Shown here piece by piece: positions 4,197 to 55,349 of a DNA stretch of 64,000 nt. Position 1 is the stretch's first letter. The number at the start of each line of letters is the position of its first letter. The DNA comes from Candidatus Gastranaerophilales bacterium HUM_12. GTDB lineage: Bacteria > Cyanobacteriota > Vampirovibrionia > Gastranaerophilales > Gastranaerophilaceae. The stretch covers positions 36,373-100,372 of the forward strand of contig DABJ01000027.1 in NCBI GenBank assembly GCA_002102825.1, in the 5' to 3' direction. The translations under genes and the position numbers were made by a program. Below the pieces are notes generated by a model. It was not told the origin of the DNA, made no database searches, and worked only from the letters and a program-made list of their open reading frames with translations.

Positions 4197-4286
4197 AGTT
4201 TTGATTTTACATCAAGAATATGTTGAATACAATTTTAATATTAAGGAACAAGGTAATATTTTCTTTATTCTTATTAATTATGTGAT

Positions 4287-5219
4287 TTATAATTTTTTAT
4301 CAATTATGTGTTGAAGATTGTTTGTTAATTTTGCAACAGTAGTTTTAGGTAAAGTTGCAATTGTATTATAATAGCCGTAATCTGTCGGTTTTTCCATTTT
4401 CCCATTTGTACTAACTTTATAATCAAATGCAATGTCGTTTATATTAACTCCAGGGGTGTTGTAAGAAAATGATGTAACTTTTCCTTTGTCATTGACATTT
4501 ACATAAATTTCAGCTTGAATTGCTCCCTGACATTTATTTCCCTCACGTTTTGAGATGATTAATGCTGAGGGTTTTCCGTCGTAAGAATAATTCTTTTCAT
4601 AGAAGAACTTATTTTCAGCATTTTTACCTGCAGTTGTTTTTGTCCAGTAGTCGATTCCGGCTTTCCCATGTGCAAGATATAGTTTGGGTGGAATCTTTTT
4701 AATTTGATTTTGTTTATAAATCATTTTTTCTGTATAGTTAACTCTACTATTTGGGTGAGTCAGTATTTTATTTATTTCTTTTGATGTTTGCAGATAATTT
4801 ATTCCTGTTAATGGTGTGATGTGTTTCTTTGCTATTTGTGGTTTTGTTGTATTTTTAGACGCAGAAGTTTTTGAATTGATTGGGGTTTGTTTTGTTGTTT
4901 TTGCTGTATTTGTTTTGGGTTGAGCTTTAGCTATTTTACTATTATTGTTATTTGGTATATAAAGGACTTCATTGACTTTTAAATTGTTCATTGCTTTGAT
5001 TGTTGATTTTTTGTTTAATTTTGCAATTTCATACATGAAGTTTGATATTTCAGATTTTTTAGCATTATTTTTTTGAATATGAGTTTTTGCAATGTTCCAA
5101 AGGTTATCTCCTTTGACAACTCTGTATTTTTTTTTGCCCTTTTCGTTTGGTTTTGCCGCATTATATTGCGCTGTAGCATAACTACCAGTTTTACTATTTT
5201 TCGAAATAGGTGAAACCAT
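4287..5219 (-). CDS. LysM domain-containing protein, otherwise uncharacterised
   Basis: YRVVKGDNLWNIAKTH...VNEVLYIP matches a LysM repeat. This is followed by a low-complexity K/T/N linker and an unknown C-terminal domain. Confidence 0.6.
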   Translation of the reverse strand: MVSPISKNSKTGSYATAQYNAAKPNEKGKKKYRVVKGDNLWNIAKTHIQKNNAKKSEISNFMYEIAKLNKKSTIKAMNNLKVNEVLYIPNNNNSKIAKAQPKTNTAKTTKQTPINSKTSASKNTTKPQIAKKHITPLTGINYLQTSKEINKILTHPNSRVNYTEKMIYKQNQIKKIPPKLYLAHGKAGIDYWTKTTAGKNAENKFFYEKNYSYDGKPSALIISKREGNKCQGAIQAEIYVNVNDKGKVTSFSYNTPGVNINDIAFDYKVSTNGKMEKPTDYGYYNTIATLPKTTVAKLTNNLQHIIDKKL

Positions 5220-13142: not shown

Positions 13143-14159
13143 ATGCAAGTCCAAGGATTTTCAACATATTCAAATTATAATTCTCAAATGCAAGCAAGGA
13201 CACCTGTGTTTAGAGGTTACACTTCTCGCTTTGGTAAAACTTTGCATAGTGCAATTGATAGAGGCTATCCGACCGAAGTTGAAAAGAAAAGTCTTTTGGG
13301 AGAAATTCAAAAGTTTATCAGAGAAAAATTATCTCCGGATAGATTGCTTGGAGAAGGTGCACATGGTTCGGTTTATAAAATAGATGACGATTTCTGTATG
13401 AAATTCGATATTGGAACAAAACCCAGAGCCAAAAAGATGGGCGAGCTTCCCGAAAATGGCTTTAAAGGGTTAAAAACATATTATGGTAGCAAGGTTGCAG
13501 ATTTTGATGATGTTGCTATTTTGAAAAATGTTTCACCAGATGGGGAGCATATTCCTGTTGGGGTTCCTCAAAAATTTGCTATAAATAATTCTTCAGATGA
13601 AAATTTTGTATATTATCAATGTATTGCCCTTCCAAGATTGAGTGATCTCCCTCAGAAAAGTTTCGATGCTGTGGCTGAAGATTGTCAACGTCTAAATGAA
13701 CTCGGGGCAAAAAATAAAACTCATTACACTTTTGATTATATAAATCCTAATAATTTTGTAATTGTTAATGACAAAATTAGGATTATTGATGATATAAATG
13801 TTTTAAAATCATCAGAAGATAATAGTGTTGCGAATTTGTTTAATGTTTTTCTGGAGAAGTCTTTCCTAAATACACCTGTTCAGTATTCACTGTATAGTGA
13901 AACAACAAGGAAAAAGTTGTTCAAAAAGATTGTCCTTGCAGGTATGAAAGCGGGTTTGCCAATGCGCAGTAAACATTCTACCGAGAATCTTTCCAGTTGG
14001 AAAAATGTTGTGAATGAACTTTGCGGAATGGATAATCCTTATGGTGAAGTATTGCATAATCTTGAAAAAATTTCTCAAAATCCAAATAAAGAACAACGAC
14101 TAAAACTTGCAAATGATTATCTTGATTCTTTATTTGAATATGATAAATTTCAGGATTAA
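13143..14159 (+). CDS. protein-kinase-like (PKL) fold protein with PVFRG N-terminal tag
   Basis: Gly-rich loop LGEGAHGSVYKI, beta3 Lys in FCMKF, catalytic-loop-like FDYINPNNFVI (D..N), and DFG-like IRIIDDI. Confidence 0.5.
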   Translation: MQVQGFSTYSNYNSQMQARTPVFRGYTSRFGKTLHSAIDRGYPTEVEKKSLLGEIQKFIREKLSPDRLLGEGAHGSVYKIDDDFCMKFDIGTKPRAKKMGELPENGFKGLKTYYGSKVADFDDVAILKNVSPDGEHIPVGVPQKFAINNSSDENFVYYQCIALPRLSDLPQKSFDAVAEDCQRLNELGAKNKTHYTFDYINPNNFVIVNDKIRIIDDINVLKSSEDNSVANLFNVFLEKSFLNTPVQYSLYSETTRKKLFKKIVLAGMKAGLPMRSKHSTENLSSWKNVVNELCGMDNPYGEVLHNLEKISQNPNKEQRLKLANDYLDSLFEYDKFQD

Positions 14160-14614
14160 TTCTTTTTGTTCAAATTATCAATTTCAGCATTCAAAGTTTT
14201 GATTTGAACTTCAAGTTTTGTTCTTTCATCAATTACCGTATTGAAAGCCTTTTCCAGTGTTTTAATTTTTGCTTCTAAAACTTCAACTTTTGAGGCATTG
14301 TTTGTACCGGAAATTGATGTCTTTTCTAATTCTCTTTCATAGGCTTTAACTTTGATTTTTGTAGCTTCCAAGAACATATAAACAGTTCCTGCGCCAACAA
14401 AAATTCCGGATATAAGGGTTAATACAAGAAATGTTGAAATTCTAACGGCTTTTGCAATATAAACCCCTTGGATAATCCAGCCGTTTTGAATTTGTACATC
14501 TGTCAAATTTCTGTTTAGAAAATTGATACTTGAATAGTTCTCAAAATTTATTATTGCTAAATATATAAAACAAAGTAAAATTATTACACTTAAAATTAAG
14601 AATACTTTTTTCAT
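14156..14614 (-). CDS. membrane protein with two TM segments and C-terminal coiled coil (LapA/DUF1049-like)
   Basis: Hydrophobic segments VFLILSVIILLCFIYLAII and TFLVLTLISGIFVGAGTVYMF, followed by a heptad-rich tail. Confidence 0.5.
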   Translation of the reverse strand: MKKVFLILSVIILLCFIYLAIINFENYSSINFLNRNLTDVQIQNGWIIQGVYIAKAVRISTFLVLTLISGIFVGAGTVYMFLEATKIKVKAYERELEKTSISGTNNASKVEVLEAKIKTLEKAFNTVIDERTKLEVQIKTLNAEIDNLNKKN

Positions 14615-14616
14615 TA

Positions 14617-15534
14617 TTAAACTCTCCTGTTTCTAAAATAATTTAGAACTTTTTCTAATTTTTCGTCCGGTTTCAGTTCAAGTTCAATTATCTGTGCTGA
14701 AAACGGTTTTGCAAATTTTAGATAGAATGATTGCAAAACTTGTTCTTGAGTTTTGACTTTTCCTTGTCCTGCACCATATAATGTGTCATTATACACAGGG
14801 TGACGTTTATTGCTTGTATGAACTCTGATTTGATGAGTTCTTCCGGTGACAAGAGTTAGTTCTACGTAAGTTGCTTCGTTGCCAAATCGTTCAATTACTT
14901 TTAACTTTGTAACACTCGGTCTCCCGTCCGGTCTTACTGCCATTTTTTTAGGATTAAGATTGTTTCTGCCTATTGGGTCTGTAATTACGTCATTATCTCG
15001 TGGATAATTCCCAACCAAAATGGCATGATATTTTTTTGTAAGATTATGTTCTTTAATGATATTTGCAAGATATTCGTGAGTTTTGTTGTTTTTTGCAATC
15101 ATCAAAAGTCCGGAAGTGTTTCTATCCAGTCGGTGAACAATTCCTCTTCTGAATTCTCCGTTAACATCAGACAAATTTTGACCGTATTTATATAACAATG
15201 CATTTACTAATGTTCCTGAAGTTTCAATAAATGTTGGGTGAGAGAGCATTCCTGACGGCTTGTTTATTACAGCCATATTCTCATCTTCCCAGATAACTTC
15301 TAATGGAATATTTTCCGGTTCAACTTTCAGAATACTTTCCTCTACAAGGTTTTCAAACTCAATTTTATCCCCATCTTTTAAGGTGTAAGATGGTTTTTTC
15401 TCTGTCCCGTTAACAAGAACTTTTCCTTTTTTAATTGCTGTTTGAATTTTTGAACGAGAAATGCCCTCATATAATTCTGATAAATATGAATCCAGTCTTA
15501 AATCTTCGGAGTTTTCATCAATTGTTAAAATCAT
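14617..15534 (-). CDS. rluD: 23S rRNA pseudouridine synthase, RluA/RluD family
   Basis: N-terminal S4-like domain, catalytic HRLDRNTSGLL motif and GRTHQIRVH block. Confidence 0.9.
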   Translation of the reverse strand: MILTIDENSEDLRLDSYLSELYEGISRSKIQTAIKKGKVLVNGTEKKPSYTLKDGDKIEFENLVEESILKVEPENIPLEVIWEDENMAVINKPSGMLSHPTFIETSGTLVNALLYKYGQNLSDVNGEFRRGIVHRLDRNTSGLLMIAKNNKTHEYLANIIKEHNLTKKYHAILVGNYPRDNDVITDPIGRNNLNPKKMAVRPDGRPSVTKLKVIERFGNEATYVELTLVTGRTHQIRVHTSNKRHPVYNDTLYGAGQGKVKTQEQVLQSFYLKFAKPFSAQIIELELKPDEKLEKVLNYFRNRRV

Positions 15535-15535
15535 A

Positions 15536-16000
15536 TTATCTTCCCTTGTAGCAAAGTAAAATTACGACAAGTGCAATAACTCCAATAGTTATGAAAATAT
15601 CTGCAACATTGAAAATAGGGAAGTTTACAAAATTCAATTGGATATAATCTCTTACATAACCTAAAATAATTCTTTCGTGGCAATTACTTGCAATTCCTGA
15701 GCATAACAAAGCAATGAATGATATTGAAATGAAATGAATGTTTTTAATATGATTATGAACATACATAAATAGCATTGTAATTGCAACGATTGACACGATT
15801 ATTAGGAATTCTCTTGCGTTTTGTAATAGGCTGAATGCTGCTCCAGCATTTTTTAAATAATGCAATTGGAAAACTGCATTAGAATAATGGTGACCTGATG
15901 TTAAGTTATCAACAATTAGCTTTGAAGAAAACAAAGCTAGGAATAACCAAAAAATAAAACAGCCTATAAAAAATATGTATTTCCCGATTGAATTTTTCAT
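15536..16000 (-). CDS. lspA: lipoprotein signal peptidase II
   Basis: 154 aa, four TM segments, NAGAAFS and FNVADIFITIG motifs. Confidence 0.85.
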   Translation of the reverse strand: MKNSIGKYIFFIGCFIFWLFLALFSSKLIVDNLTSGHHYSNAVFQLHYLKNAGAAFSLLQNAREFLIIVSIVAITMLFMYVHNHIKNIHFISISFIALLCSGIASNCHERIILGYVRDYIQLNFVNFPIFNVADIFITIGVIALVVILLCYKGR

Positions 16001-16001
16001 A

Positions 16002-16901
16002 TTAATCCTCTATTTTAATCAAGTTGTTTTTAGGTACAACGTTAACCCTTTTCATTACGCAAGCTAGTCCTGACATATAAACTTGAAAATGTCCATCATT
16101 CACATTTCTTGCTTTTGAGATTGCTAAAGATGCTATTGCATACTCATTTACATTATCAGTATTAGCTTTTATAAGTCTTTCAAGAACTTGTGTTTGTGGT
16201 AAAGCTCTTAATTCCGTTTTTGGAGTTGAAGCAGGATATGACACAGGGTCATGGTCAATTGAACCGACAATGAATGTATTATCATTATTTTCACCATCAA
16301 CTTTCACTGTCGTTGTATAAGTTTCTCCGGAGCTAACTTGAGCCGGTGCCTGAATTTCAATATTCATAAATCTTGCATCTCCGTAAAGGAGAGATGATTC
16401 GTCTGTTAATGATGTTTCTCCTGAAATTAGCCATCTGTCATTAACTTTTACCAAATGATAAATACCTGTTGATGTTGAATGAATTTCTCCGGATACGGGC
16501 ATTAAATCCATCGTGTCATGGATTGTTCCACTTGCGGTTTCAATTACTTGTACACTTGCGTTGTCTCCATTTACACTTATTGATTCTATTTTTGTAGAAT
16601 AAGTTAAGTCTTCGCAAGCTTTCCAGGTTTCTTCAATGCTTTTGAAATAGGCATCTTTATTAAACCCGTCATTGTTAATATAATTATCTGCATACAAGTT
16701 TTTTAATTGTGTTAAACCATGTTTGTTTGCAAAAGTGTTATGAACTTCAAACAAGCTTTTAATTTGTTTAATAGCTTGTTTATTTTCTTTATTCTGTTCA
16801 ATTCTGTAACTTCTATTTGAAATTAGAGATGCTTCTGCTTGAGAATTTACTGCAGGTATGATTAAAGCTGTTAATAATAATGTTAATACTATCTTTTTCA
16901 T
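16002..16901 (-). CDS. secreted hypothetical protein
   Basis: Sec signal peptide MKKIVLTLLLTALIIPAVNSQAEA; no family recognised. Tightly packed with lspA (1-nt gap). Confidence 0.6.
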   Translation of the reverse strand: MKKIVLTLLLTALIIPAVNSQAEASLISNRSYRIEQNKENKQAIKQIKSLFEVHNTFANKHGLTQLKNLYADNYINNDGFNKDAYFKSIEETWKACEDLTYSTKIESISVNGDNASVQVIETASGTIHDTMDLMPVSGEIHSTSTGIYHLVKVNDRWLISGETSLTDESSLLYGDARFMNIEIQAPAQVSSGETYTTTVKVDGENNDNTFIVGSIDHDPVSYPASTPKTELRALPQTQVLERLIKANTDNVNEYAIASLAISKARNVNDGHFQVYMSGLACVMKRVNVVPKNNLIKIED

Positions 16902-17051
16902 ACATTACAGTATAGTTGAAAAATCTGGAAAATTTAATAGTATAAATAATGGAGATTAAAAACACATTAACATTTCTTAAAATAGTGTAATTATTACTCT
17001 AGAAATGGGTATATAAAGAGTATTAAGATTAGCCGGAGGATATTTAAGATT

Positions 17052-37911: not shown

Positions 37912-39282
37912 ATGGGATTGTCATCATCACAAGGTCGATTATTATCAATAACTGCGAGATTAACATCAAATGAGTATGAATCTCAACAGATTTCCAATGC
38001 AAAAATGAGATTGGCTACTCAATCTCAGGCAGCTAGTGATGATTATATTAATGCCCTAAATTCTCAACAAGTTCTTTATACAACTTATGATGAAAAAGGT
38101 AATTCTACAGCAGAAAGATTAACGGCAAATGCAATGTATCAGTATGCAGATATGAAAAATCAATATCTCCTTACAAATACATCTGGTCAAGTTTTGTTGC
38201 AACAAGAAGATGCTCATAAGTTCCAAGAAGCAAGTAATTTAGATGAATTTCTAGAATCTTACGGATTAAAGAAACAATGGAAATCAACTACATTAGAATC
38301 AAATTATAACAAATTGGAAAGTGCTGAATTTGAAAATTATAGAAAAGCATGGGACGAAAAAGTTCAAGCGGCTATTGATAAAAAAGATTATTCTGTTTCT
38401 TACCACAAAGATGGAGTTCTTGTAACTGAGAGTAATTTATCATCTGATAAAGCTTGGGAAAAAGAACAAGGTGAAGCTTTCAGCAACTATAATGAAGTAC
38501 TTGCAACATATAATAACGAAGTTGCAAAGGCAAGTGCAGGTATTAATAATCAAGTTGAATTGAGCAATGCTATTAAAGCTTTGTCAGAAGCAAAAACGAA
38601 ATATAGCAGTTGTCTCACTTATGATGATTGGGTTAAAACTAAGGCTGCATATTTGGACTCAAGTAATAATGTTACGAATAGATTGAATAGCGAATATTTG
38701 AATATGCAAGATAAGTACAATCCTGTCCTTGCTGAATACAATGCAGAAGCAGAGGATTATGGTTCAACAATTACAGATTTATATACTTATGATGATGCTA
38801 CAAAAGCTCAATGGTACACAAATTTGTGGTACAGATTGAACGGCGAATCTTCTGAAAAATCAGAAAAGAGCAAATCAAATTATACCGTATTGAATACAAA
38901 ATTAGCAGATAGTACAACATGGATTCAAGATGCAATTACACAAGGTGCGATTACTATTGAAGTTGCCTCAAAGGCTGAGGATTCTAAAAATACGATTCCG
39001 GATTTAAATAATCCGACCGTTTATAATTTGAAAGGAATAAGCTGGAAAGCAACATTATTCTCCTCTTGTTCAGATTTAACTCAAAAAGATGATGATCAAG
39101 CAATTGCGAGAGCAGAAGCTGAATATGAAAGAAAAACTCAAGAAATCAATGCAAAAGATGAAAAATATCAAGCAAAAATAAAAAATCTTGATACAGAACA
39201 TACTGCTTTACAAACAGAATACGATTCAATTAAGAGTGCATTGAGTAAAAACATTGATAGATCATTCAAAACATTCTCGTAG
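37912..39282 (+). CDS. coiled-coil-rich hypothetical protein
   Basis: 456 aa with heptad-like N- and C-terminal segments (MGLSSSQGRLLSITARLTSNEYESQQISNAKMRLA...; ...AKIKNLDTEHTALQTEYDSIKSAL). Confidence 0.55.
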   Translation: MGLSSSQGRLLSITARLTSNEYESQQISNAKMRLATQSQAASDDYINALNSQQVLYTTYDEKGNSTAERLTANAMYQYADMKNQYLLTNTSGQVLLQQEDAHKFQEASNLDEFLESYGLKKQWKSTTLESNYNKLESAEFENYRKAWDEKVQAAIDKKDYSVSYHKDGVLVTESNLSSDKAWEKEQGEAFSNYNEVLATYNNEVAKASAGINNQVELSNAIKALSEAKTKYSSCLTYDDWVKTKAAYLDSSNNVTNRLNSEYLNMQDKYNPVLAEYNAEAEDYGSTITDLYTYDDATKAQWYTNLWYRLNGESSEKSEKSKSNYTVLNTKLADSTTWIQDAITQGAITIEVASKAEDSKNTIPDLNNPTVYNLKGISWKATLFSSCSDLTQKDDDQAIARAEAEYERKTQEINAKDEKYQAKIKNLDTEHTALQTEYDSIKSALSKNIDRSFKTFS

Positions 39283-43168: not shown

Positions 43169-43240
43169 TCCTCAGTAGCTCAATGGCGGAGCATTCGACT
43201 GTTAATCGAAGGGTTGCTGGTTCGAGTCCAGCCTGGGGAG
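43169..43240 (+). tRNA. tRNA-Asn (GUU), CCA not encoded
   Basis: Manual cloverleaf: acceptor TCCTCAG/CTGGGGA, anticodon stem TTCGA/TCGAA with loop CTGTTAA, and T arm GCTGG-TTCGAGT-CCAGC. Confidence 0.9.
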
Positions 43241-43427: not shown

Positions 43428-43609
43428 GCGAGTTTGAGGCTAAAATGCAGATTATTAAAAGAAAAAAGGATAATTCCAAGGATAAGAAAAGGATAAATTG
43501 GATATTTTTTATATTACATTTCTTTAGACATGGGAAGAGGCAACAAACTCCAATAATACTAACAATTTCCCTAATTCCTTATGATTACATATTTATAAAA
43601 CTATCCTTC
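43428..43609 (+). repeat. ~182-nt direct repeat, copy A
   Basis: Aligns by hand with 45829-46009 with roughly 19 differences including a 1-nt indel. Begins with CGAGTTTGAGGCT. Confidence 0.85.
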
Positions 43610-43648
43610 TACTTATAATCAGTATAATTAATTTTACTAATCAAAACC

Positions 43649-45667
43649 CTACATTTCATTCAAATTTATTATAGAGGATTTTGGTTTTTCGACTTTTGGT
43701 TTTTCTATAGGATTAAATATTTCATATAAACACGAAGTAAAAGTTGTGTTTCCGTCAAATTTACATTCTTGAGTGATTGTATCAATATAAATTTTATCTT
43801 CGCCAGAAGAACCTATAATTTTCATTTCTTTATTTTCATTTGGATAGTTTTTAAGATTAAGCTTATTCATGTTTTGACCAACATATATAGGCATATCAGG
43901 ATTACCAAGCTCTTTTGTAAAATTCTTAGCATACGCAAATATCAAATCTTTAATTTTATTATTAATACTTTCTTTTATATAATCTTTTTTGAGTTCAATA
44001 TTATCTAACACCAATGCTGGTTTATTCTCAATTTCTGCAATATAACACATAGTATTACCAACAGGTTTATCATTAACTAAAACTTCCATTCCAGAAATCA
44101 TTTTATTTTTTATATAATTAGGTGCTATAGCTTGTCTCGTGCCTGTTCCTATTGCTGTGCAACAGGAAGCATCAATACCTAAAAATAATGAATGAGAAAC
44201 ATTATTCATATCAACTTGTTGTACAGTTAATTGTATATTGTTAGTATTCGGATTTTTCTGTAATAAAAGCATTTTTTGTTTAAGTTTTAAAATCCAGCTT
44301 TCAAAAGTTTTTCTTGCCATAGTTGCGTCAGGATTTTTATCAGGACTTTTCCAAAAAGAATTCTTTTTCATAAATTCACTAATAATATCAATCAATTCAG
44401 GCAATTCTTTAGCTGATATCCGTTGGTTATCTTTACAAAGTTTTAAAGCTTGATTATTAATATCTGAATAAAGACTATATAATGAATTTTGAGTATTTAA
44501 TTTATAACCTTTTATGCTTATTTCTTCAAATAATTTTGCTTTCTTATCTATTGAAAGAATTCCCAATATAGGAGATGTCAAAATTTCTTCTAAATTATTT
44601 ATTATATCATTTTGTTTATCTTCATCTGTTATATTTTTTTGTAATTTCGATTTTGGGTCAAATTTAGTCCATCTATTAAAATTTATCCCCGATTTTTCAA
44701 ATTGAACTTTTGTCGCTTTATTTTGAGGAAGTTCTAGTAAAACCTCTCTCACAGTCTTATTTGGACTTTGGTTAAGAATTGTGAGCAACTGATTATAAGG
44801 AGATTTAAAATCTTCCTTTGAAGTAAACATTTTTGATAAGTACTTATTATTTCTAAAATCCACTTGTTTGCAAACATTACCGTTTGAGTCAGTCCTTACA
44901 ATATCATTCAATATATTTTGTAATTCATTAATATTGTTTTTTTTATTATATTTATTTAATACTGACTCTAAAATATCATAAGAATTCTGCATAATATAAA
45001 AAAACTTAGCTAATTCAATTTTATAAGGATAATCTGTAATTGATTCTTTTACTAAATTTTTATTTTTATCTGTTAAATTATTTATATCTTTAATTAAATT
45101 GTCTTTATTATCAATTATATGAAACTGTTTTTTTAAGTTAGTGATTTGAGTTTGCCTGTTTTTATATTGCAAACTTTCTGTTGGATTTGTTAATTCCAAT
45201 AACTTTTGATACAAAGGGTGATTTGTACTTATATCGCCAATTGTATCTATATAACTTTCGACATTTTCAAACTTTTTGTCAAACGATGCGATAAAAGATT
45301 TTTTCCCAAGAATTTTTACTGTATTTAATACTTTTTTAGGCTTTTTAAAAATTAACTGTTCTATTTCGTCATTAGTAACTTTATGCGAGAATGATGACAA
45401 AAAATCACGCCTATTAAACCCTGCAAGCCTGATATCCATAAGAGTTTTAGCCTGTTCGACTCTATTTAATTTATCTCTTATAAAATTAATTGTATATTTT
45501 TTAGGATATCCCAATTCCAAAATCTTAAGAAATCTGTCTGTAGTTAAATTTGTACTTCCTAAATTACTGCCAAAATATATATTTGATTTATTTTGACGAT
45601 AAATGTTAGATTTATTTCGAATATTATTATGGGGAGTATATCCATAATAAAGGGGTGAAATATTCAT
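43649..45667 (-). CDS. large orphan protein (672 aa) with SNIYFGS N-terminal tag
   Basis: Long uninterrupted ORF, helical N-terminal two thirds. C-terminal region has LGIDASCCTAIGTGTRQ; no family recognised and no obvious RBS. Confidence 0.55.
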   Translation of the reverse strand: MNISPLYYGYTPHNNIRNKSNIYRQNKSNIYFGSNLGSTNLTTDRFLKILELGYPKKYTINFIRDKLNRVEQAKTLMDIRLAGFNRRDFLSSFSHKVTNDEIEQLIFKKPKKVLNTVKILGKKSFIASFDKKFENVESYIDTIGDISTNHPLYQKLLELTNPTESLQYKNRQTQITNLKKQFHIIDNKDNLIKDINNLTDKNKNLVKESITDYPYKIELAKFFYIMQNSYDILESVLNKYNKKNNINELQNILNDIVRTDSNGNVCKQVDFRNNKYLSKMFTSKEDFKSPYNQLLTILNQSPNKTVREVLLELPQNKATKVQFEKSGINFNRWTKFDPKSKLQKNITDEDKQNDIINNLEEILTSPILGILSIDKKAKLFEEISIKGYKLNTQNSLYSLYSDINNQALKLCKDNQRISAKELPELIDIISEFMKKNSFWKSPDKNPDATMARKTFESWILKLKQKMLLLQKNPNTNNIQLTVQQVDMNNVSHSLFLGIDASCCTAIGTGTRQAIAPNYIKNKMISGMEVLVNDKPVGNTMCYIAEIENKPALVLDNIELKKDYIKESINNKIKDLIFAYAKNFTKELGNPDMPIYVGQNMNKLNLKNYPNENKEMKIIGSSGEDKIYIDTITQECKFDGNTTFTSCLYEIFNPIEKPKVEKPKSSIINLNEM

Positions 45668-45828: not shown

Positions 45829-46009
45829 CGAGTTTGAGGCTGAAATGCAGAATATTAAAAGAAAAAAGGATAATTCCAAGGATAAGAAAAGGATAAATCG
45901 GATATTTTCTATATTACATTTTTTCAGACATGGAAGTGGCAACAATCCCCAATAATACTAACCTTTTCCCCAATAGCTTAACTTTACATATTTATAAATC
46001 TATCCTTCT
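45829..46009 (+). repeat. ~181-nt direct repeat, copy B
   Basis: See copy A. Confidence 0.85.
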
Positions 46010-46380
46010 CTTTATATGTACTGATTTTCTATTATTGTTTGGAATATCGGCTTTAGTTTTATATCAAAGTTTTTATCTTTATATGTGATTAGTACGTTTT
46101 AACATTTCTAACCAAAATAATTTTCCGGTAGTTTTCTTTAAAAAATGAACTTATTTGTCCTTGTTTAGGCCTAAAAACAAACTATTTCAAAAGAGAGCTA
46201 CGACAATTACTATTTGTTTTTAAAACAAAAATTTATGCCGAAGGGAAAACCAAGCTAACGAAGTTTAAAACGAACATTATGGCAAAATACAGGCATTAAT
46301 GTGGGAAATTACAATAAGCTTGAAATCTTAATCTAATTGAAATCTTTATCCTGTTACTATAACAAAATATTCGCTAAGAG

Positions 46381-46528: not shown

Positions 46529-47203
46529 CTACTTCATAAAATATACCATGCAAGGGCGGCCGCCGGTATCGTAATTTATTTGTTCTATAACTTCACCGTT
46601 TTTTGTTAAATAGTGCATGTATTTTCGAACCGTAACTTTTGAAATATCCAAAAATGCTGCAATTTGTTCTGATGTATGTCCGCTATTTGTATCTTCTCTT
46701 AAGTATTTACGGATTTTGTCTAATGTCTTTTCTTGAATACCTTTTGGAAGTTCAAAATTATTATTCCCCAAATGTTCGCTATTCATAATTTCATCAATTT
46801 TTTTCTGATCCAGAACGCAAACATTATTTTTTTGAACTCTACACTCAACGAATTTGTCCAGTGCTTGTTGAAATCGTTCTTGTACAAAAGGTTTGACAAG
46901 GTAATCAATGACCCCAAAGTTTAAAACCGTATCAAGGGTCTTTTTATCATTTGATGCCGTAACCATAATTATATCAGTATTAATTTCTTCCGTTCTGATT
47001 TTTTTTAGCAAAGATAAACCATCTAACACTGGCATATAAACATCAAGGATAGCCAAATCCACTTGATTTTCTGACAAATATTTGAACGCATCATTCCCGT
47101 TCCTGAAAGATTGAACAACATAAAAACGGGAATCTTGCTCAACATAATGAGTATTTATCATTGCAACCATAGGGTCATCTTCTACGATTAAAACCTTGTA
47201 CAT
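46529..47203 (-). CDS. response regulator, CitB/DcuR family
   Basis: Receiver domain (LIVEDDP, DLAILDVYMP, KPF) plus C-terminal HTH (ISKVTVRKYMHYL); colinear with DcuR. Confidence 0.9.
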   Translation of the reverse strand: MYKVLIVEDDPMVAMINTHYVEQDSRFYVVQSFRNGNDAFKYLSENQVDLAILDVYMPVLDGLSLLKKIRTEEINTDIIMVTASNDKKTLDTVLNFGVIDYLVKPFVQERFQQALDKFVECRVQKNNVCVLDQKKIDEIMNSEHLGNNNFELPKGIQEKTLDKIRKYLREDTNSGHTSEQIAAFLDISKVTVRKYMHYLTKNGEVIEQINYDTGGRPCMVYFMK

Positions 47204-47213
47204 TTATTACCTC

Positions 47214-48017
47214 TTATTCATAATATTTAGGTGCTAATTTCATTGTTTGGAAAAATTTCCAATCGTGAGCAGGAAAGACTTTTGCATCATATTTTTTAGC
47301 CAAACGTCTTACTTTTTCGATTGATTTTAAGAAACTTACACTATCATACATAAAACCGCTCATTTTTGCAGGTGGTCCAAAAATTTCTGATGTATAAACA
47401 CAATCTTGAGGAAGAATTATAGTTTGTCCTTCAAGATGAACAACAAGCCCTAAGAGATTTGGAGTATGACCGGCAAGACAAACTACTTCAACCCCTTTTG
47501 CAAGTTCAAAATCTTCATCAACCAAATGATATTGTTTTACGGGTGCTTCCAAATCTCCTTTTATATAACCGCCATGAGTTTCTCTATCAGGGTTCATGTG
47601 AACTTTTGCAAGTCCATATTTGTAATCTTCCCCAGGAACATAAACATCAGCGTGAGGGAATAAATTGATATTTCCTGCGTGGTCTAAGTGCATATGAGAA
47701 AGTACAACGGTTTTAATATCTTCCGGTTTAACACCGCAAAGTTTAAGTTGATTTTCCAATCTTTCTTCTTCTTTTTGATAAAGCGGATAAACTTCTTGCA
47801 TAGTTTTGGGCCAATAACCGTTCATGGCTTCAGGGTTTGAACCTGTGTCATATAAAATATAACCATCATCTGTTTCAATTAAATAAGCCATTACAGGCAG
47901 TTTAATCCATTCATTTTGAACATGCGGATTAGTGCGTGTTCCAAGTGTTGCACATGCAACAACGGTATTTTTATCGGTTTCTAAATACCCTGTATTTAGT
48001 GCATAAAGTTTCATCAT
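47214..48017 (-). CDS. metallo-beta-lactamase fold hydrolase, AiiA-like lactonase family
   Basis: SHMHLDHAGN (HxHxDH), later GHTPN, DxxY and terminal HD. Colinear from the N-terminal KLY..N.G to the C-terminus with AHL lactonase AiiA as I recall it. Confidence 0.7.
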   Translation of the reverse strand: MMKLYALNTGYLETDKNTVVACATLGTRTNPHVQNEWIKLPVMAYLIETDDGYILYDTGSNPEAMNGYWPKTMQEVYPLYQKEEERLENQLKLCGVKPEDIKTVVLSHMHLDHAGNINLFPHADVYVPGEDYKYGLAKVHMNPDRETHGGYIKGDLEAPVKQYHLVDEDFELAKGVEVVCLAGHTPNLLGLVVHLEGQTIILPQDCVYTSEIFGPPAKMSGFMYDSVSFLKSIEKVRRLAKKYDAKVFPAHDWKFFQTMKLAPKYYE

Positions 48018-49000
48018 TTCCCTTCTTTCTTAAATTTAACGGTGAATTTTGTTTCTATTTCCATTTCTGACGTAACTGAAATTTTACCGTTATAAGTCTC
48101 AATCAATGATTTAACAACAAAAAGTCCCGTTCCTCTAGAATTACTTTTTGTTGAAAATCCGTCTTTAAAAATTTTCTTCAAATTAGATTTTTTTATTCCG
48201 TTGCCATTATCGCTTACGACAATTTTTATTTCTTTTGGTGTTGATAAAATAGATACATATATTTTTTTGTTGGAAACATCTGTTGAATTTAGTGAATCCA
48301 TCGCATTTTCGATTAAATTTCCAAGCACTGTTATAAAAACATCTGACGGAATTCTTGTATCGTTTTCTTCCAGTGAACTTGATGAATCCAATGCAAAATG
48401 GATGCCGAGTTCTGATGCTCTAGCAAATTTTCCAATCAAAAGAGCAGCAATAGATGGAATTTTAATTTGTTTAATAATGGTACTTATTATCTCTTTTTGT
48501 ACCATACTGACATTCATAATGTATTCAACTGCTTCATCGTATTTTTTCATTTGGATTAAGCCCAAAATTACATGCAATTTATTCACAAAATCATGGTTAT
48601 TAGCTCTCATTGATTCGACAAGATGTTTAACCCCGGTCAAATTTTCTGCAAGTTGTACGACCTCAGTTCTGTTTCTAAAAATAGCAAATGCTCCAACGAT
48701 TTCACCATTATCATAAATTGGCATTCTATCAGAAATTACGTAATCATTTTTTAATGATTTCATCTGCACATTGAATTCTTTTTTGCCTGTCGTTAAGAGT
48801 TCACCTAATCTTGATGCAGGATAAATCTCATTCAAATCTTTTCCGATAGGTTCACTTTCTGTTATATGCAGCATTGGAATTGCTGATTTGTTTATAAATA
48901 TAACTTTTTTGTTTTTATCAATCGCTAAGATGCCTTCCTCTAGTGCCATAAGGATATCTTCACGCAATTTAAACATTTCAAGTAATTTATTTTCATCCAT
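48014..49000 (-). CDS. soluble CitA/DcuS-family sensor histidine kinase (PAS + kinase core, no TM or periplasmic domain)
   Basis: PAS directly at the N-terminus, H box NNHDFVNKLHVILGLIQ, N box GNLIENAMDS, G1 DNGNGI, G2 GTGLFVV. No hydrophobic 20-mer anywhere. Confidence 0.85.
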   Translation of the reverse strand: MDENKLLEMFKLREDILMALEEGILAIDKNKKVIFINKSAIPMLHITESEPIGKDLNEIYPASRLGELLTTGKKEFNVQMKSLKNDYVISDRMPIYDNGEIVGAFAIFRNRTEVVQLAENLTGVKHLVESMRANNHDFVNKLHVILGLIQMKKYDEAVEYIMNVSMVQKEIISTIIKQIKIPSIAALLIGKFARASELGIHFALDSSSSLEENDTRIPSDVFITVLGNLIENAMDSLNSTDVSNKKIYVSILSTPKEIKIVVSDNGNGIKKSNLKKIFKDGFSTKSNSRGTGLFVVKSLIETYNGKISVTSEMEIETKFTVKFKKEGK

Positions 49001-49034: not shown

Positions 49035-50549
49035 TTAAATATTAGGAAATTTATACGCATCTTCAATATCAACAGGCATTTCCTTGTACTCACAAGTGTT
49101 TATAGCCTTATCAAGATAATCGTACAATTCCTGTTTAAATTTCGGATGTGCACAATTTTCGATAATTGTTTTGGCTCTTTCTATCGGGTCTAAACCTCTC
49201 AAATCTGCAACCCCTTGTTCTGTAATAAGTGCGTGGATTTCATGGATTGTATGGTCAACGTGACTAACAAGTGGGACAATACAAGAGATTTCTCCATTTT
49301 TTGCAGTAGATTTTGTGATAAAAATTGATAGTCCAGCATTTTCGCAATAATCGCCAGAACCGCCGACACCATTCATCAAACGACAACCGTTAATGTATGA
49401 AGAATTAGTGTTACCATAAATATCTGCCTCAATAACTGTGTTAATCGCAATTATACCAAGTCTTCTGATAACTTCGGGGTGGTTACTGATTTCTTGCGGT
49501 CTTAGTACAATTTTATCTTTATATTTTTCAAAGTTTTTAAAGAACTCATCAATCTTATCCCAAGAGATTGTCAAGGACGTACCCGATGCACATTTAACTT
49601 TTCCTGCCTCAATAAGGTCGAAAATTGAATTTTGCAAAACTTCTGAATATACTGTTAAATCTTCAAAATCAGAATCTTTCAAACATTCTAAAACTGCATT
49701 TGAAACACTGCCGACACCTGCCTGAATGGGAGGAAGCGGATTACACAATCTTTTATGTTCAACTTCATTTTTCAAAAAGTTAACCAAATTTTTAGCCATA
49801 GCATCAAATTCCGCATCAGATGGTACAACTTTCCTTCCATTATCAGGAATTGTGCTGTGAACAACAGCAACAACTTTATCAAAATCACATTTTATATAAG
49901 GTGTTCCAATTCTATCGTCAACTTTTGTAATTGGAATAGGTTTTGTATATGGAGGATTTTCAGGAGAATAAACATCATGAACCCCTTCTAAAGACGCTGG
50001 AACATAAGTGTTTACTTCAATTATAATTTTGTCCGCACATTCTGCATATATGTTAGAAGTACCAACAGAAGTTGTCGGAATAATATTTCCGTTTTCATCA
50101 ATCGCAGTTGCTTCAATTATTGCAACATCAACATGGTTTAAGAAATTTCTTTTTACCCAGACAGGCATCAAACCAAGCGGAACATCATGATAGCCGACTT
50201 TCCCGTCATTAATCGCATTTCTCAAATCTTTATTGGTTTGGTAAGGAATACGTTTTTTTAAAGCTCCTTTTCTTGCAAGTTCACCATCAAACTCATCTCC
50301 GAGAGAAGCTCCTGAATAAACTGTTAAATCAAGCTTTTCACCGTTATCTGCACGTTTGGCAAGCTCTCCTGCAATAACTTTAGGATAACCTGCAATCGTA
50401 AAACCACTAACACCAAGTGTCATATTAGGGTTTATAAACTTTGCAGCCTCAGCCGGTTCCATAACTTTAGTTAAATATCTTTTATCTCTAATCCTTTTTT
50501 CAAATTCTTTGTCCACAGTCTTTACCTCACTTACTCTTTCATTTACCAA
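49035..50549 (-). CDS. cat1: acetyl-CoA hydrolase/transferase family enzyme, Cat1-type succinyl-CoA:acetate CoA-transferase
   Basis: GVSGFTIAGYPK, RPQEISNHPEVIRRLG, MNGVGGSGDY and VSHVDHT.HE...TEQGVADLRGL are colinear with Clostridium kluyveri Cat1 as I recall it. Confidence 0.8.
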   Translation of the reverse strand: MVNERVSEVKTVDKEFEKRIRDKRYLTKVMEPAEAAKFINPNMTLGVSGFTIAGYPKVIAGELAKRADNGEKLDLTVYSGASLGDEFDGELARKGALKKRIPYQTNKDLRNAINDGKVGYHDVPLGLMPVWVKRNFLNHVDVAIIEATAIDENGNIIPTTSVGTSNIYAECADKIIIEVNTYVPASLEGVHDVYSPENPPYTKPIPITKVDDRIGTPYIKCDFDKVVAVVHSTIPDNGRKVVPSDAEFDAMAKNLVNFLKNEVEHKRLCNPLPPIQAGVGSVSNAVLECLKDSDFEDLTVYSEVLQNSIFDLIEAGKVKCASGTSLTISWDKIDEFFKNFEKYKDKIVLRPQEISNHPEVIRRLGIIAINTVIEADIYGNTNSSYINGCRLMNGVGGSGDYCENAGLSIFITKSTAKNGEISCIVPLVSHVDHTIHEIHALITEQGVADLRGLDPIERAKTIIENCAHPKFKQELYDYLDKAINTCEYKEMPVDIEDAYKFPNI

Positions 50550-50727
50550 TAATTTATCATATTGATAAAATTTGTATGTACTAACGAAATTAAAAAAAGA
50601 GTTTGGAAAGTAAAGAAAGTTTTAAATAACGCAAAAAAATTTTTATACTTACAAAAGAATGTACAAAATTGAATTACAAAACTAACATATTGCTATAGGT
50701 TGAAATTGTAAGAAAGGAAATATAAAA

Positions 50728-52113
50728 ATGGAAAACGAAATTAGTGCAGAAGAATTGATTAATTCGTTAGTTGAAAAAGCTCATAAAGCTCAACAAGAAT
50801 TTGAATCATTTTCTCAAGAACAAACAGATGCTATTGTTAAAGAAATTGGTAAAGTCGTTTATGATAGAGCTGAAGAATTAGCCAGAATGACAGTTGATGA
50901 AACTAAAATGGGTGTTTATGAAGACAAGGTTGCAAAATGCCACGGTAAATCAAAATGTATTTGGAACAGTTTGAAAGGCAAAAAATCAGTAGGGATTATT
51001 GAAGAAAATAAAGAAACAGGAATTATTAAAGTTGCAAAAGCAAAAGGTGTAGTTGGTGCAGTAACCCCTGTAACAAATCCTGTTGTAACTCCAATGTGTA
51101 ATATTATGTTTGCTATTAAAGGTCAAAACGCAATTATTATTGCTCCGCACCCAAGAGCAGAACATGTAAACAAATACGTTGTAGATCTGTTTAGAGAAAT
51201 TTTGAAAAAACACAACGCTCCTGTTGATTTAATTCAAACAATCGAAAAATCATCAATTGATGCTACAAATGAATTAATGAAAAAAGTTGATGTAGTTGTA
51301 GCAACAGGCGGTGGCGGTATGGTTAAAGCTGCTTATTCATCAGGTCACCCTGCATTAGGTGTTGGTCCTGGTAACGTTCAAGTTATTATGGATAGAGGAA
51401 TTGACTACGAAGATGCCGTTAAGAAAATTATCATCGGCAGAACTTTTGATAATGGTATCATTTGTTCAGGTGAACAAGCCGTATTCATTCCAAAAGAAGA
51501 TTTTAATAAAGTTCTTGACTTGTTTAGAAAAAACGGCGTATTTGTTGTTGAAGATGAAGCATCAATTAAGAAATTTGCTGATACAATCTTCCCTGAAAAC
51601 GGTCCAATCAATAGAAAAATTGTTGGTCAATCTGTTCAAACAATTGCAAAACTTGCTGATGTTGAAGTTCCGGAAGGTACAAGAATGATTTTGATTAAGG
51701 CAAGGGCAATCGGTAAAGGCAACGGCGAACCTTTATGTCGTGAAAAAATGTGTCCTGTAATGATTACTGCTCCTTACGATACATTTGAAGATGCTATTAA
51801 ACTTGCTCAATCAGATTTGGAATACGAAGGAAAAGGTCATACAGCATCAATTCATTCAAATGATATGGAACATGTTCGTTATGCAGGTGAAAATTTGACG
51901 GTAAGTCGTTTAATTGTTAACCAATCCTCATCAACAGGTGCAGGCGGCAGTTTGTATAATGGCTTTGCTCCAACTACAACATTAGGTTGTGGATCTTGGG
52001 GTAACAACAGTATTTCAGAAAACTTGAATTACACTCACTTAATTAACGTTTCTCAAATCGGACTTTATAATAAGGATAAAAAAGTTCCGACAGATGAAGA
52101 AATTTGGGCTTAA
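50728..52113 (+). CDS. sucD: CoA-acylating succinate-semialdehyde dehydrogenase (SucD-type)
   Basis: MGVYEDKVAKCH, TNPVVTPMCN, FDNGIICSGEQ (catalytic Cys) and TTTLGCGSWGNNSISENL are colinear with C. kluyveri SucD. Confidence 0.8.
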   Translation: MENEISAEELINSLVEKAHKAQQEFESFSQEQTDAIVKEIGKVVYDRAEELARMTVDETKMGVYEDKVAKCHGKSKCIWNSLKGKKSVGIIEENKETGIIKVAKAKGVVGAVTPVTNPVVTPMCNIMFAIKGQNAIIIAPHPRAEHVNKYVVDLFREILKKHNAPVDLIQTIEKSSIDATNELMKKVDVVVATGGGGMVKAAYSSGHPALGVGPGNVQVIMDRGIDYEDAVKKIIIGRTFDNGIICSGEQAVFIPKEDFNKVLDLFRKNGVFVVEDEASIKKFADTIFPENGPINRKIVGQSVQTIAKLADVEVPEGTRMILIKARAIGKGNGEPLCREKMCPVMITAPYDTFEDAIKLAQSDLEYEGKGHTASIHSNDMEHVRYAGENLTVSRLIVNQSSSTGAGGSLYNGFAPTTTLGCGSWGNNSISENLNYTHLINVSQIGLYNKDKKVPTDEEIWA

Positions 52114-52185: not shown

Positions 52186-53301
52186 ATGAAACAGTTAATA
52201 TTAAAACCGGAATTGCATAAATTCCAAACTTGCAAAGAATTTGCAAAAGAATTTGAATTGGGGGAAGATGATTTAATTCTTACAAATGAATATATTTTTA
52301 ATCCATATTTCAAAGAATTAAATTTGCCTGTAAAAACAATTTTCCAAGAAAAATTCGGTGCAGGTGAACCAACAGATATTATGGTTGATGCAATTATTAA
52401 TGAAGCTGCAAAACATACTTTCAAAAGAATAATTGCAATCGGCGGTGGTACAATCATTGATATAGCAAAAGTTTTGGCAGTAACAAACGGAGAATCTGTC
52501 GATAAATTATACGACAAAAAAAATGAATTAAAGAAACATTATGAACTAATTATTATCCCTACAACTTGTGGTACAGGCAGTGAAGTTACAAATATTTCAA
52601 TCATCAACAGAACAAGATTGGGTGTAAAAATGGGATTGACTTCGCCTGAAATGTTTGCAGAAATGGCAGTTCTAATTCCTGAACTTTTGAGATCATTACC
52701 GTTTAAAGTTTTTGCAACAAGTTCAATTGACGCTTTGGTACATTCTGTTGAATCAAGTTTATCTCCAAAAGCAACCGATTATTCCAAATTATTTGGTTAT
52801 AAAGCTATTGAAATGATTATCACAAGCTATCAAAGACTTGTTAAAGAAGGTAAAGAAATTTTGCCTGATTTGATGGATACATTCTTGACGGCAAGCAACT
52901 TTGCTGGTATTGCGTTTGAAACAGCAGGTTGTGCAGCGGTTCACGCATTGAGTTATCCATTGGGTGCAAAATATCACGTTCCACATGGAGAAAGCAATTA
53001 TGCCGTATTTACTGGTGTTTTGAAAAATTATATGGAAATTAAACAAGATGGCGAAATCGCAACAATGAATGAATTTTTAGCAAACCTTCTTCATTGCGAT
53101 GTAAAAGTAGTTTATGAAGAACTAGAAAACTTGTTGAATTCTGTATTGCAAAAGAAACCTTTGCACGAATACGGTGTAACTGAAAAGGATGCAGAAGATT
53201 TCGCTGAAAGCGTAATTAAAACTCAAGGGCGTTTGATGGCAAATAATTTTGTTGTATTAGATTATGATAGAGTATTAAAAATTTATAAGGAGTTGCTATG
53301 A
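52186..53301 (+). CDS. 4hbD: 4-hydroxybutyrate dehydrogenase (iron-containing alcohol dehydrogenase family)
   Basis: 371 aa; IAIGGGTIIDIAKV, HSVES and HALSYPLGAKYHVPHGESN metal-site blocks. N-terminus colinear with C. kluyveri 4HbD; lies directly downstream of sucD. Confidence 0.75.
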   Translation: MKQLILKPELHKFQTCKEFAKEFELGEDDLILTNEYIFNPYFKELNLPVKTIFQEKFGAGEPTDIMVDAIINEAAKHTFKRIIAIGGGTIIDIAKVLAVTNGESVDKLYDKKNELKKHYELIIIPTTCGTGSEVTNISIINRTRLGVKMGLTSPEMFAEMAVLIPELLRSLPFKVFATSSIDALVHSVESSLSPKATDYSKLFGYKAIEMIITSYQRLVKEGKEILPDLMDTFLTASNFAGIAFETAGCAAVHALSYPLGAKYHVPHGESNYAVFTGVLKNYMEIKQDGEIATMNEFLANLLHCDVKVVYEELENLLNSVLQKKPLHEYGVTEKDAEDFAESVIKTQGRLMANNFVVLDYDRVLKIYKELL

Positions 53302-53606: not shown

Positions 53607-53611
53607 CAAAA

Positions 53612-53640
53612 AACAGCATACTTAAAGTATGCTGTTTTTA
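53612..53640 (+). terminator. intrinsic terminator of the sucD-4hbD operon
   Basis: AACAGCATAC-TTAAA-GTATGCTGTT followed by TTTT. Confidence 0.85.
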
Positions 53641-54719: not shown

Positions 54720-55349
54720 ATGAAAGTAAATAATGTACAAAATACTAGTGCTAATATAAATTTTAAAATGGCATTAAAAATAAATCCTAAATTACGTCCC
54801 GAAGTTGAAAAACTTGGTCCTAAATGGGTTGAATATTTTGAAAAATTGGGAAAAAGGGTTGAAAATGTAAAACATTATGATGTTTGTTTTGAAGATAGTG
54901 TTTATACCCCAGCGGTGAGATCAGTTGAGAATCCTCAAAAAAATTACTATTCAGCACTGCAACGTGAAGAAGACCAATTAGGTCGTTTTGTTTATTTAAC
55001 TTGTGGAGATGAAACTTATGGATTTTATAATCCCAATGAACCAGAGATATTTCGTTCAATCTATGGCAAGGAAGCTCCGAAGAAGTATGCCTCTTTTAGA
55101 GGAATATATGATTCTGGGGTTCAAGCTGCGGAATTATCTAAATTATTAGAAAAACAAAAACTTCAAAGAATTGCAGATATGAAAACTAAAGAGGCTGCCA
55201 AATTGCTAAAAGAGGCTCAAATACTAAGCGAAAAAGAGAAATTGAATAAATCAATAGATAATTTATTTGACAAATACGCAGGGGAGATTCCTGAAGAACC
55301 AACGAAAAAGAAATCTTTTTGGAGTAGACTTTTTAGTTTTTGTAAATAA
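54720..55349 (+). CDS. orphan protein with SANINFKM N-terminal tag
   Basis: 209-aa ORF after an AAAGGAG RBS; no family recognised. Confidence 0.55.
   Translation: MKVNNVQNTSANINFKMALKINPKLRPEVEKLGPKWVEYFEKLGKRVENVKHYDVCFEDSVYTPAVRSVENPQKNYYSALQREEDQLGRFVYLTCGDETYGFYNPNEPEIFRSIYGKEAPKKYASFRGIYDSGVQAAELSKLLEKQKLQRIADMKTKEAAKLLKEAQILSEKEKLNKSIDNLFDKYAGEIPEEPTKKKSFWSRLFSFCK

Follow-up and report, generated by a model that had tools for sequence, protein, structure and literature searches.

A lactonase gene between a soluble DcuS-type kinase and its response regulator in a Gastranaerophilales cluster that probably links gamma-butyrolactone with succinate

Genes and proteins of the cluster

The DNA analyzed here is a 64,000-nucleotide stretch of contig DABJ01000027.1 from Candidatus Gastranaerophilales bacterium HUM_12 (hereafter, the window). 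It carries a cluster of seven genes in two divergent groups: cat1, a histidine kinase gene, a lactonase gene, and a response regulator gene on the minus strand, and sucD, 4hbD, and a gene for a small PQ-loop-like protein on the plus strand (Table 1). The four minus-strand open reading frames (ORFs) are tightly packed, at exactly the coordinates noted in a preliminary description of the sequence, which had given the order kinase, lactonase, regulator and had proposed translational coupling. Both junctions can be read in the DNA. The TGA of the kinase (48016–48014) shares an ATGA tetranucleotide with the first ATG of the lactonase (48017–48015), and between the TAA of the lactonase and the regulator ATG at 47203 lies a 10-nt spacer, GAGGTAATAA, with a GAGG Shine-Dalgarno motif. 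A second in-frame ATG lies directly after the first ATG of the lactonase. Because homologues are 266 aa long, it may be the true start, and it would still share 1 nt with the kinase stop. The gap between cat1, which is intact, and the kinase is just 34 nt, so the four genes look like one operon. The listed start of cat1 is a TTG and may be ~10 codons too early, because the orthologues are 494–495 aa long.

The lactonase has a metallo-beta-lactamase (MBL) fold. Its best PDB matches, all full length, are AaL (6cgy, E 8e-52), GcL, and AiiB, at 33–36% identity. The top 26 PDB fold matches of its AlphaFold2 model (predicted local distance difference test score (pLDDT), 86.4) are all lactonases, with a template modeling score of 0.85 to GcL and AaL. 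Since lactonases account for these 26 structural matches and for every strong match by sequence, the protein is of the lactonase type, as first assigned, rather than of the glyoxalase II, RNase, or beta-lactamase type. The metal ligands H108-x-H110-x-D112-H113, H184, D205, and H251 are all invariant in an alignment of 21 homologues, as is the catalytic tyrosine Y208 (D205-C-V-Y208), which is equivalent to AiiA Y194 and AaL Y223. The lactonase is ~8 residues shorter than AaL, GcL, and AiiB, the differences lying in loops. Residues M22 and W26 of the hydrophobic acyl patch of AaL correspond to Thr or Asn in the lactonase in an alignment mapped by hand, which makes this weak evidence. In NCBIfam, the lactonase scores 206 bits with AhlS (cutoff, 475), 124 with AttM (cutoff, 390), and 116 with AiiA (cutoff, 375). 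It has no equivalog-level match to any of the three, which points to a separate clade within the AiiA-like superfamily.

Loop A217–D225 is the only segment of the AlphaFold model with a pLDDT below 50. In AaL and GcL, the aligned segment is the active-site '237-loop'. Loop A217–D225 holds a nearly invariant Lys218 and an invariant Ser220 throughout the clade, and could shape substrate specificity.

The kinase is composed of a PAS domain, an SPOB_a domain (54 bits), and a HATPase_c domain (68 bits), as assigned by Pfam, and covers only positions 207–524 of the 529-position DcuS/MalK profile of NCBIfam. Residues 9–111 match the cytoplasmic PAS domains (PASc) of CitA (8bjp/5fq1, E 1e-12) and DcuS (2w0n, E 2e-6). 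These matches bear out the initial view of the kinase as a cytoplasmic PAS domain plus kinase core only. In accordance, a periplasmic PAS/Cache ligand-binding domain flanked by two transmembrane helices is not present in the kinase, and a search of it for an N-terminal hydrophobic segment or transmembrane helix found none. The catalytic boxes are intact (phospho-accepting H135 in the NNHDF box, N-box LIENAMD, G1 DNGNG, and G2 GTGLF). The intact cat1 immediately upstream indicates that the kinase is not a fragment of a longer gene; by its sequence, it appears to be a complete but soluble PASc-kinase, and not a split or decayed full-length gene. Across orthologues the PAS domain is 76–79% conserved and the catalytic domain 63–77%. 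As the PAS domain is as conserved as the catalytic domain, it is predicted to be functional.

The regulator comprises Response_reg (97 bits) and HTH_64 (30 bits) domains in Pfam, with the phospho-acceptor D54 and residue K104 present. It is closest to DcuR and DpiA, and its score with the DcuR model is 150 bits, below the cutoff of 262.

The products of the divergent genes and of cat1 match enzymes of 4-hydroxybutyrate (4HB) metabolism. PDB entry 8cei, which SucD matches, is titled 'succinate-semialdehyde dehydrogenase (acetylating)'. Cvir-Hbd2, the match of 4HbD, is reported to be restricted to C4 substrates, and density in the tunnel of its crystal structure has been interpreted as gamma-butyrolactone (GBL; PMC13495136). 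Cat1 scores 638 bits with ScpC (cutoff, 500) and 655 bits with TIGR03458 (cutoff, 658.7) in NCBIfam, and matches AarC (4eu3, 412 bits) and 2g39 (506 bits) in the PDB. A search of the window with AbfD and a Cat2-like protein (tblastn) matched only Cat1; neither cat2 nor abfD was found. The PQ-loop-like ORF scores 19.7 bits with the Pfam PQ-loop family, under the cutoff of 22, and is kept with the cluster in Gastranaerophilales. In a Coprobacillaceae genome, a homologue with 42% identity (L028, 7222–7464) lies ~2.5 kb away from the lactonase. Our guess is that the protein transports a substrate or product of the pathway.

Two other readings of the dehydrogenases were set aside. A sulfoacetaldehyde/isethionate reading (top NCBIfam matches, SauS and SarD) was rejected because both scores fall far short of cutoff and PDB entries for SucD and 4HB dehydrogenase give much stronger matches. 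A 5-hydroxyvalerate/delta-valerolactone reading is disfavored because the matched Cvir-Hbd2 is a C4-restricted enzyme.

Both blocks of the cat1/sucD intergenic region are kept in an alignment of orthologous clusters whose proteins have diverged to 65–80% identity. The 15-mer AAAGARTGTACAAAA occurs once in the window, exactly once in each of 13 loci, and in none of the other 77 loci. In those of the 13 loci with coordinates checked, it maps to the cat1/sucD intergenic region. The blocks are candidate −10 and regulator-binding sites. The promoter scan gives 39 sites where shuffling predicts 40.9, and the terminator scan 5 where it predicts 4.9, no excess in either case; no terminator was found 3′ of the regulator. 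An Rfam scan of the whole window returns two tRNAs only and shows neither a riboswitch nor a leader near the cluster. The GC content of the cluster (0.33, compared with about 0.31 for the window) gives no composition signal of recent transfer.

Table 1 Features of the seven-gene cluster and its intergenic region
Feature	Position	Strand	Description
Response regulator, 224 aa	46529–47203	−	DcuR/DpiA type; REC + HTH_64
Lactonase, 267 aa	47214–48017	−	MBL fold; AiiB/AaL/GcL clade
Histidine kinase, 328 aa	48014–49000	−	Soluble, DcuS/CitA family; PASc + DHp (SPOB_a) + CA only
cat1	49035–50549	−	Succinyl-CoA:acetate CoA-transferase; gene 1 of 4 in the operon
Divergent promoter region	50550–50727		Between cat1 and sucD; two conserved blocks
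Conserved block 1	50590–50620		A-rich, GAAAGTAAAGAAAGT
Conserved block 2	50640–50668		TTTTTATAnTT..AAAGAATGTACAAAA
sucD	50728–52113	+	CoA-acylating succinate-semialdehyde dehydrogenase; PDB 8cei, E 8e-177, 592 bits, full length
4hbD	52186–53301	+	Fe-dependent 4HB dehydrogenase; PDB 30sm (Cvir-Hbd2), E 6e-135, 453 bits
PQ-loop-like ORF, 102 aa	53298–53606	+	Small, hydrophobic, SemiSWEET-sized; overlaps the 4hbD stop by 4 nt
Terminator-like hairpin	53609–53639	+	14-bp stem; directly after the sucD-4hbD-PQ operon

Conservation and genomic surroundings

Near-identical clusters (lactonase identity, 94–99%) are present in ten species-representative genomes (L001–L008, L044, and L048), mostly labelled Candidatus Gastranaerophilales or Melainabacteria and largely from human-gut assemblies. 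Wherever the contig is long enough, tblastn recovers the PQ-loop-like gene, 4hbD, and sucD and, divergently, cat1, kinase, lactonase, and regulator, in this order. Diverged metagenomic relatives retain the order cat1-kinase-lactonase-regulator at 71–79% (kinase), 80–85% (lactonase), and 65% (regulator) identity. The ATGA overlap is retained in L081 and L089 and is kept in three of four lineages. Outside Gastranaerophilales the triad was not found: the histidine kinase is adjacent to the lactonase in none of the 68 other lactonase loci, one of which has a weak regulator-like match ~5 kb from the lactonase. The triad thus recurs in other genomes, but only within Gastranaerophilales.

Several copies of the cluster differ in their surroundings. 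The contig L008 was considered as an independent triad without cat1, and this was rejected because a truncated 3′ remnant of cat1 lies upstream of the kinase (4000–4310). Of cat1, roughly the final 90 codons are left, and they border on an unrelated 823-aa gene of the opposite strand. L008 is either an assembly chimera or a copy of the cluster that was rearranged or has decayed. The cluster of Gastranaerophilales is also present, at 95–99% protein identity, on the 5-kb contig L007, which was binned under 'Bacteroidaceae bacterium' and is probably mis-binned. The seven-gene cluster has different flanks in contigs L081, L082, and L083. In L082, genes of the Mu-transposase_C and TniB-like families are present on both sides (1–2000 and 13691–16993), which suggests that the cluster is a moving cassette, carried by a mobile element or lying close to one.

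In an exhaustive search, the 50%-identity cluster of the kinase stands alone, the next representative being 47% identical. Most of the 149 other cluster representatives are 500–560 aa long and align from about residue 210; ~5 are complete-looking short forms, and ~9 have an N-terminal extension of only 50–90 aa. Every inspected relative of the kinase, whether full-length (~50–55% identical, from Oscillospiraceae and others) or short, is directly followed by its own regulator. A DcuS-type kinase without transmembrane helices is uncommon but recurrent, and the inserted enzyme gene is the lineage-specific feature.

The lactonase itself is found far more widely. We surveyed the neighborhoods of the best 80 of roughly 377 genomic homologues by clustering the ORFs within 6 kb and annotating the recurrent clusters. 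In the 68 non-melainabacterial loci the lactonase homologues are 50–80% identical. AbfD, Cat2-like CoA-transferase, 4HbD, gamma-aminobutyrate (GABA) transaminase (GabT), and SucD were counted as 4HB-pathway genes. Such a gene lies within four genes of the lactonase in 34 of the 68 loci and immediately adjacent in 29. An AbfD-type protein (HpaB_N/HpaB, 484 aa) and a 436-aa acetyl-CoA hydrolase/transferase of the 4HB-CoA-transferase type (CoAT) are encoded in 19 of the 34 loci, usually with a small NifU-like protein added, in the orders S54PAS-MBL-AbfD-NifU-CoAT or AbfD-NifU-CoAT-MBL. A 4hbD homologue and/or GABA transaminase or SucD is present in 13 of the 34, 12 of them with 4hbD. A PrdR-like sigma-54 activator that includes a PAS domain (S54PAS) is encoded in 17 of the 68 loci. 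The 4HB-linked loci are spread over Bacillota, Fusobacteriota, Bacteroidota, Methylococcales, and Planctomycetota; the hosts are Clostridium, Faecalispora, Eubacterium, Sporomusaceae, Pelosinus, Desulfosporosinus, Lucifera, Ilyobacter and other Fusobacteriaceae, Prolixibacteraceae, Methylococcales, and one planctomycete. Around the lactonase in the remaining 34 loci lie cytidylyltransferase/kinase pairs, methyltransferases, aldo-keto reductases, and ABC transporters. LuxI/LuxR-type or acyl-chain catabolic genes are absent from all 80 neighborhoods, in which 4HB genes recur.

From the gene contents, 4HB appears to be the only metabolite common to the 4HB-linked contexts, and the recurrence of five enzymes of one rare pathway across phyla would be hard to attribute to chance. 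With 4HB genes as neighbors of the lactonase in half of the non-melainabacterial loci, hydrolysis of GBL to 4HB is supported as the physiological reaction. The presence of the lactonase in 4HB operons of several phyla, together with SucD, 4HB dehydrogenase, and Cat1 in the window, substantially strengthens the GBL/4HB hypothesis that the preliminary description had put forward. The closest non-melainabacterial homologues (77–80% identity; L009, L010, and L045) sit in AbfD-NifU-CoAT-MBL operons, suggesting that the melainabacterial lactonase was acquired from an operon of this type.

The Firmicute AbfD-NifU-CoAT-lactonase operons add varying subsets of a LuxC-type acyl-CoA reductase, a LuxE-type acyl-protein synthetase, an AMP-ligase, and an 81-aa ORF, which may encode a carrier protein. 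These accessory genes, which lie outside the textbook 4HB pathway, are present within 6 kb in L009, L010, L016, L017, L019, L022, L027, L031, L032, L034, L045, L049, and L078. A sensor domain common to the kinase and the sigma-54 activators that accompany the lactonase in Firmicutes was considered and rejected, as the two PAS domains are only 22% identical, a generic PAS similarity. Archaeal homologues of the lactonase (50% identity) are present in metagenome-assembled genomes of Bathyarchaeota and Thermoproteota (L074, L076, and L079), in L074 and L079 among ABC-transporter genes; the clade appears to cross domains at unusually high identity.

Elsewhere in the window, a 189-nt direct repeat (43429–43617 and 45829–46016; 89% identity; only two copies in the window) brackets an orphan gene for a 672-aa protein (43649–45667) without a Pfam or NCBIfam match. 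The first copy of the repeat lies just downstream of a tRNA gene (43169–43240). Four sizeable ORFs around the cluster (37912–39282, 54720–55349, 55753–56847, and 57438–59051) match no Pfam family at E 1e-3. One of the Pfam-less proteins, of 456 aa, has an N-terminus that is coiled-coil-like and Gln/Ser-rich.

Proposed pathway and alternative explanations

What follows on substrate, flux direction, kinase ligand, and regulatory logic we infer from the gene identities, catalytic motifs, kinase architecture, coupling, cluster conservation, and association of the clade with 4HB genes described above. The lactonase is most likely a GBL-opening enzyme rather than a quencher of bacterial signals, and the seven-gene Gastranaerophilales module probably links GBL and 4HB with succinate under the control of its own two-component system. 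The lactonase would hydrolyze GBL to 4HB, 4HbD would oxidize 4HB to succinate semialdehyde (SSA), SucD would convert SSA to succinyl-CoA, and Cat1 would move the CoA to acetate, giving succinate and acetyl-CoA. The same enzymes could also run from succinate to 4HB, and the lactonase would then salvage GBL arising spontaneously. An ADP-forming acetyl-CoA synthetase adjoins the regulator in L089, which fits an ATP-yielding oxidative direction.

The soluble kinase and the DcuR-type regulator would control both divergent operons from the conserved intergenic sites. With its gene positioned between theirs and coupled to that of the kinase, the lactonase would be made whenever the sensor is made. 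It would turn GBL, which is neutral and membrane-permeant, into charged 4HB, and 4HB or the SSA derived from it is most plausibly what the cytoplasmic sensor reads. A cytoplasmic ligand of this kind, in line with the earlier suggestion that the lactonase generates or removes the ligand and resembling the inducers of BlcR (see below), would be the most economical input to the kinase. Alternatively, the kinase may be constitutively active or may be controlled by a protein partner. In Escherichia coli, PASc is reported to be needed for DcuS to interact with its co-sensor DctA, in whose absence DcuS stays permanently ON (PMC3892338, PMC8307970).

Several points weigh against this interpretation. 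The lactonase falls far under the NCBIfam cutoff of AttM, the known GBL lactonase, as it does under that of AhlS. AaL is reported to hydrolyze gamma- and delta-lactones including GBL, but its KM is poorest for GBL (PMC6062542). In 34 of the 68 loci 4HB genes are not nearby, and the association counts come from crude ORF calling and clustering and are without a formal null. The gene set of the window does not fix the flux direction, which could be from GBL and 4HB to succinate or the reverse. In full-length DcuS and CitA the cytoplasmic PAS domain is described as a transmission and partner-binding module and not as a ligand sensor (PMC3892338); ligand binding by the kinase PAS domain is therefore an assumption. 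Finally, a 24-nt spacer with GGAGG replaces the overlap in L090, indicating that tight coupling is not obligatory.

The gene order may carry less meaning than proposed above. The lactonase could be a pathway enzyme whose gene landed by horizontal transfer in the spacer between kinase and regulator, its position reflecting co-transcription only. We regard this as a serious possibility, though not as the probable one. It fits the direct succession of kinase and regulator in all close relatives of the kinase, full-length or short, and the missing kinase-lactonase overlap in L090. The nearest relatives of the lactonase are Bacillota genes from abfD operons, consistent with insertion, and in other lineages a sigma-54/PAS activator regulates the same lactonase. 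However, the order is kept down to 71% (kinase) and 65% (regulator) identity, with ATGA in three of four lineages. This conservation argues only weakly against a neutral order, as operon stability is expected anyway. Co-transcription alone could explain the position of the lactonase gene between kinase and regulator, and a regulatory meaning of the order is plausible, with lineage-restricted conservation as all that speaks for it.

The flux through the cluster may also be the opposite of that favored here, from succinate to 4HB, serving as an electron sink or feeding butyrate formation, with the lactonase only recycling GBL that arises from 4HB or 4HB-CoA. We consider such a metabolite-repair role rather unlikely. 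The genes cat1, sucD, and 4hbD match the classical reductive set of clostridia (known from C. kluyveri and P. gingivalis), and 4-hydroxybutyryl-CoA lactonizes readily. In the 19 loci described above, the lactonase lies beside AbfD and a Cat2-like transferase, which make and use 4HB-CoA, and GBL arises and accumulates spontaneously in a reconstituted succinate-to-4HB-CoA pathway (bioRxiv 10.1101/017814). However, with no cat2 or abfD in the window, 4HB-CoA, which is the main source of GBL, may be missing here. In addition, a repair enzyme has no obvious need of placement in a sensor operon, and the acetyl-CoA synthetase beside the regulator in L089 fits the oxidative direction.

It is improbable that the lactonase acts as a trigger enzyme or co-sensor, that is, that the kinase has lost its periplasmic sensor and is switched by contact of PASc with substrate-bound or free lactonase. 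Such an arrangement would be a soluble counterpart of the DctA-DcuS pair and would resemble DctA and DcuB as co-sensors of DcuS, for which PASc is described as needed for contact with DctA (PMC3892338, PMC8307970). PASc is the only non-catalytic domain of the kinase and is as constrained as the kinase core, and the kinase and lactonase genes are adjacent in every orthologous cluster and translationally coupled here. However, the lactonase keeps every catalytic residue and is little different from kinase-free homologues (77–80% identity), the overlap is lost in L090, and other short PASc-kinases have no intervening gene.

The idea offered earlier as an alternative, that the lactonase degrades acyl-homoserine lactones (AHLs) or Streptomyces-type butyrolactone signals of gut bacteria and the two-component system responds, is without contextual support and very unlikely: all NCBIfam scores are far under the equivalog cutoffs, the 80 neighborhoods contain 4HB genes and no LuxI/LuxR-type or acyl-chain catabolic genes, the changes at M22 and W26 of the acyl patch are weak evidence in the same direction, and the hosts of the lactonase are, to our knowledge, strict anaerobes in phyla not known for AHL signaling. 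What speaks for it is that the top-scoring NCBIfam and PDB entries carry annotations as quorum-quenching AHL lactonases and that enzymes of the AaL/GcL/AiiB clade hydrolyze AHLs in vitro (PMC6062542).

Relation to known systems and significance

The blcABC (attKLM)/BlcR system of Agrobacterium tumefaciens converts GBL into gamma-hydroxybutyrate (GHB), then into SSA, and these intermediates induce it (PMC5924552). Like blcABC, the cluster links a lactonase with a 4HB (GHB) dehydrogenase and an SSA dehydrogenase, here within 7 kb, has a dedicated regulator, and is proposed to act at the level of GBL, GHB, SSA, and succinate. Unlike in blcABC, the SSA step is CoA-acylating (SucD, not of the BlcA type) and is followed by Cat1, an anaerobic energy-conserving route. 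Regulation is assigned to a two-component system, and no gene for an IclR-type repressor (BlcR) is present. The lactonase is nearer to AiiB, AaL, and AhlS than to AttM/BlcC (206 vs 124 bits), and its gene lies inside the kinase-regulator pair. If the GBL reading holds, the cluster is an anaerobic, differently regulated cousin of the Agrobacterium blc system.

The cluster also resembles the succinate and 4-aminobutyrate fermentation pathway of clostridia (C. kluyveri, C. aminobutyricum, and C. viride; cat1-sucD-4hbD-cat2-abfD), with Cat1, SucD, and 4HbD at the orthologue level and with a lactonase whose clade occurs, in many anaerobes, inside operons of abfD/cat2, gabT, and 4hbD. It differs in the absence of cat2 and abfD from the window. 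The literature searched describes no lactonase for the clostridial 4HB pathway, links none with abfD operons or Melainabacteria, and gives no account of the cluster in Melainabacteria.

With DcuS-DcuR and CitA-CitB, the two-component system shares the SPOB_a DHp plus CA core, PASc, and a DcuR/DpiA-type regulator. It differs in lacking a periplasmic Cache/PAS sensor and transmembrane helices, in the intervening enzyme gene, and in its predicted targets. The lactonase has the same fold, dinuclear metal site, and catalytic tyrosine as AaL, GcL, and AiiB, and is distinguished by its very tight clade (50–80% identity across phyla), its metabolic gene context, and a partly polar acyl patch.

If the proposed function is correct, a tight and widely transferred clade of 'quorum-quenching lactonases' would be metabolic GBL hydrolases, and a common annotation would be corrected. 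A missing entry or salvage step would also be added to the textbook route of 4HB fermentation. The kinase, with PASc as its only sensory domain and an enzyme gene inside the kinase-regulator pair, would offer a compact system for CitA/DcuS-type control without an extracellular sensor. GBL and GHB are neuroactive compounds and drugs, and a cluster of gut bacteria that converts them to succinate would be of pharmacological interest. Anaerobic 4HB/GABA fermentation operons may contain this clade as a standard part that has been overlooked, and the clade may provide a gut-microbial route of GBL/GHB turnover.

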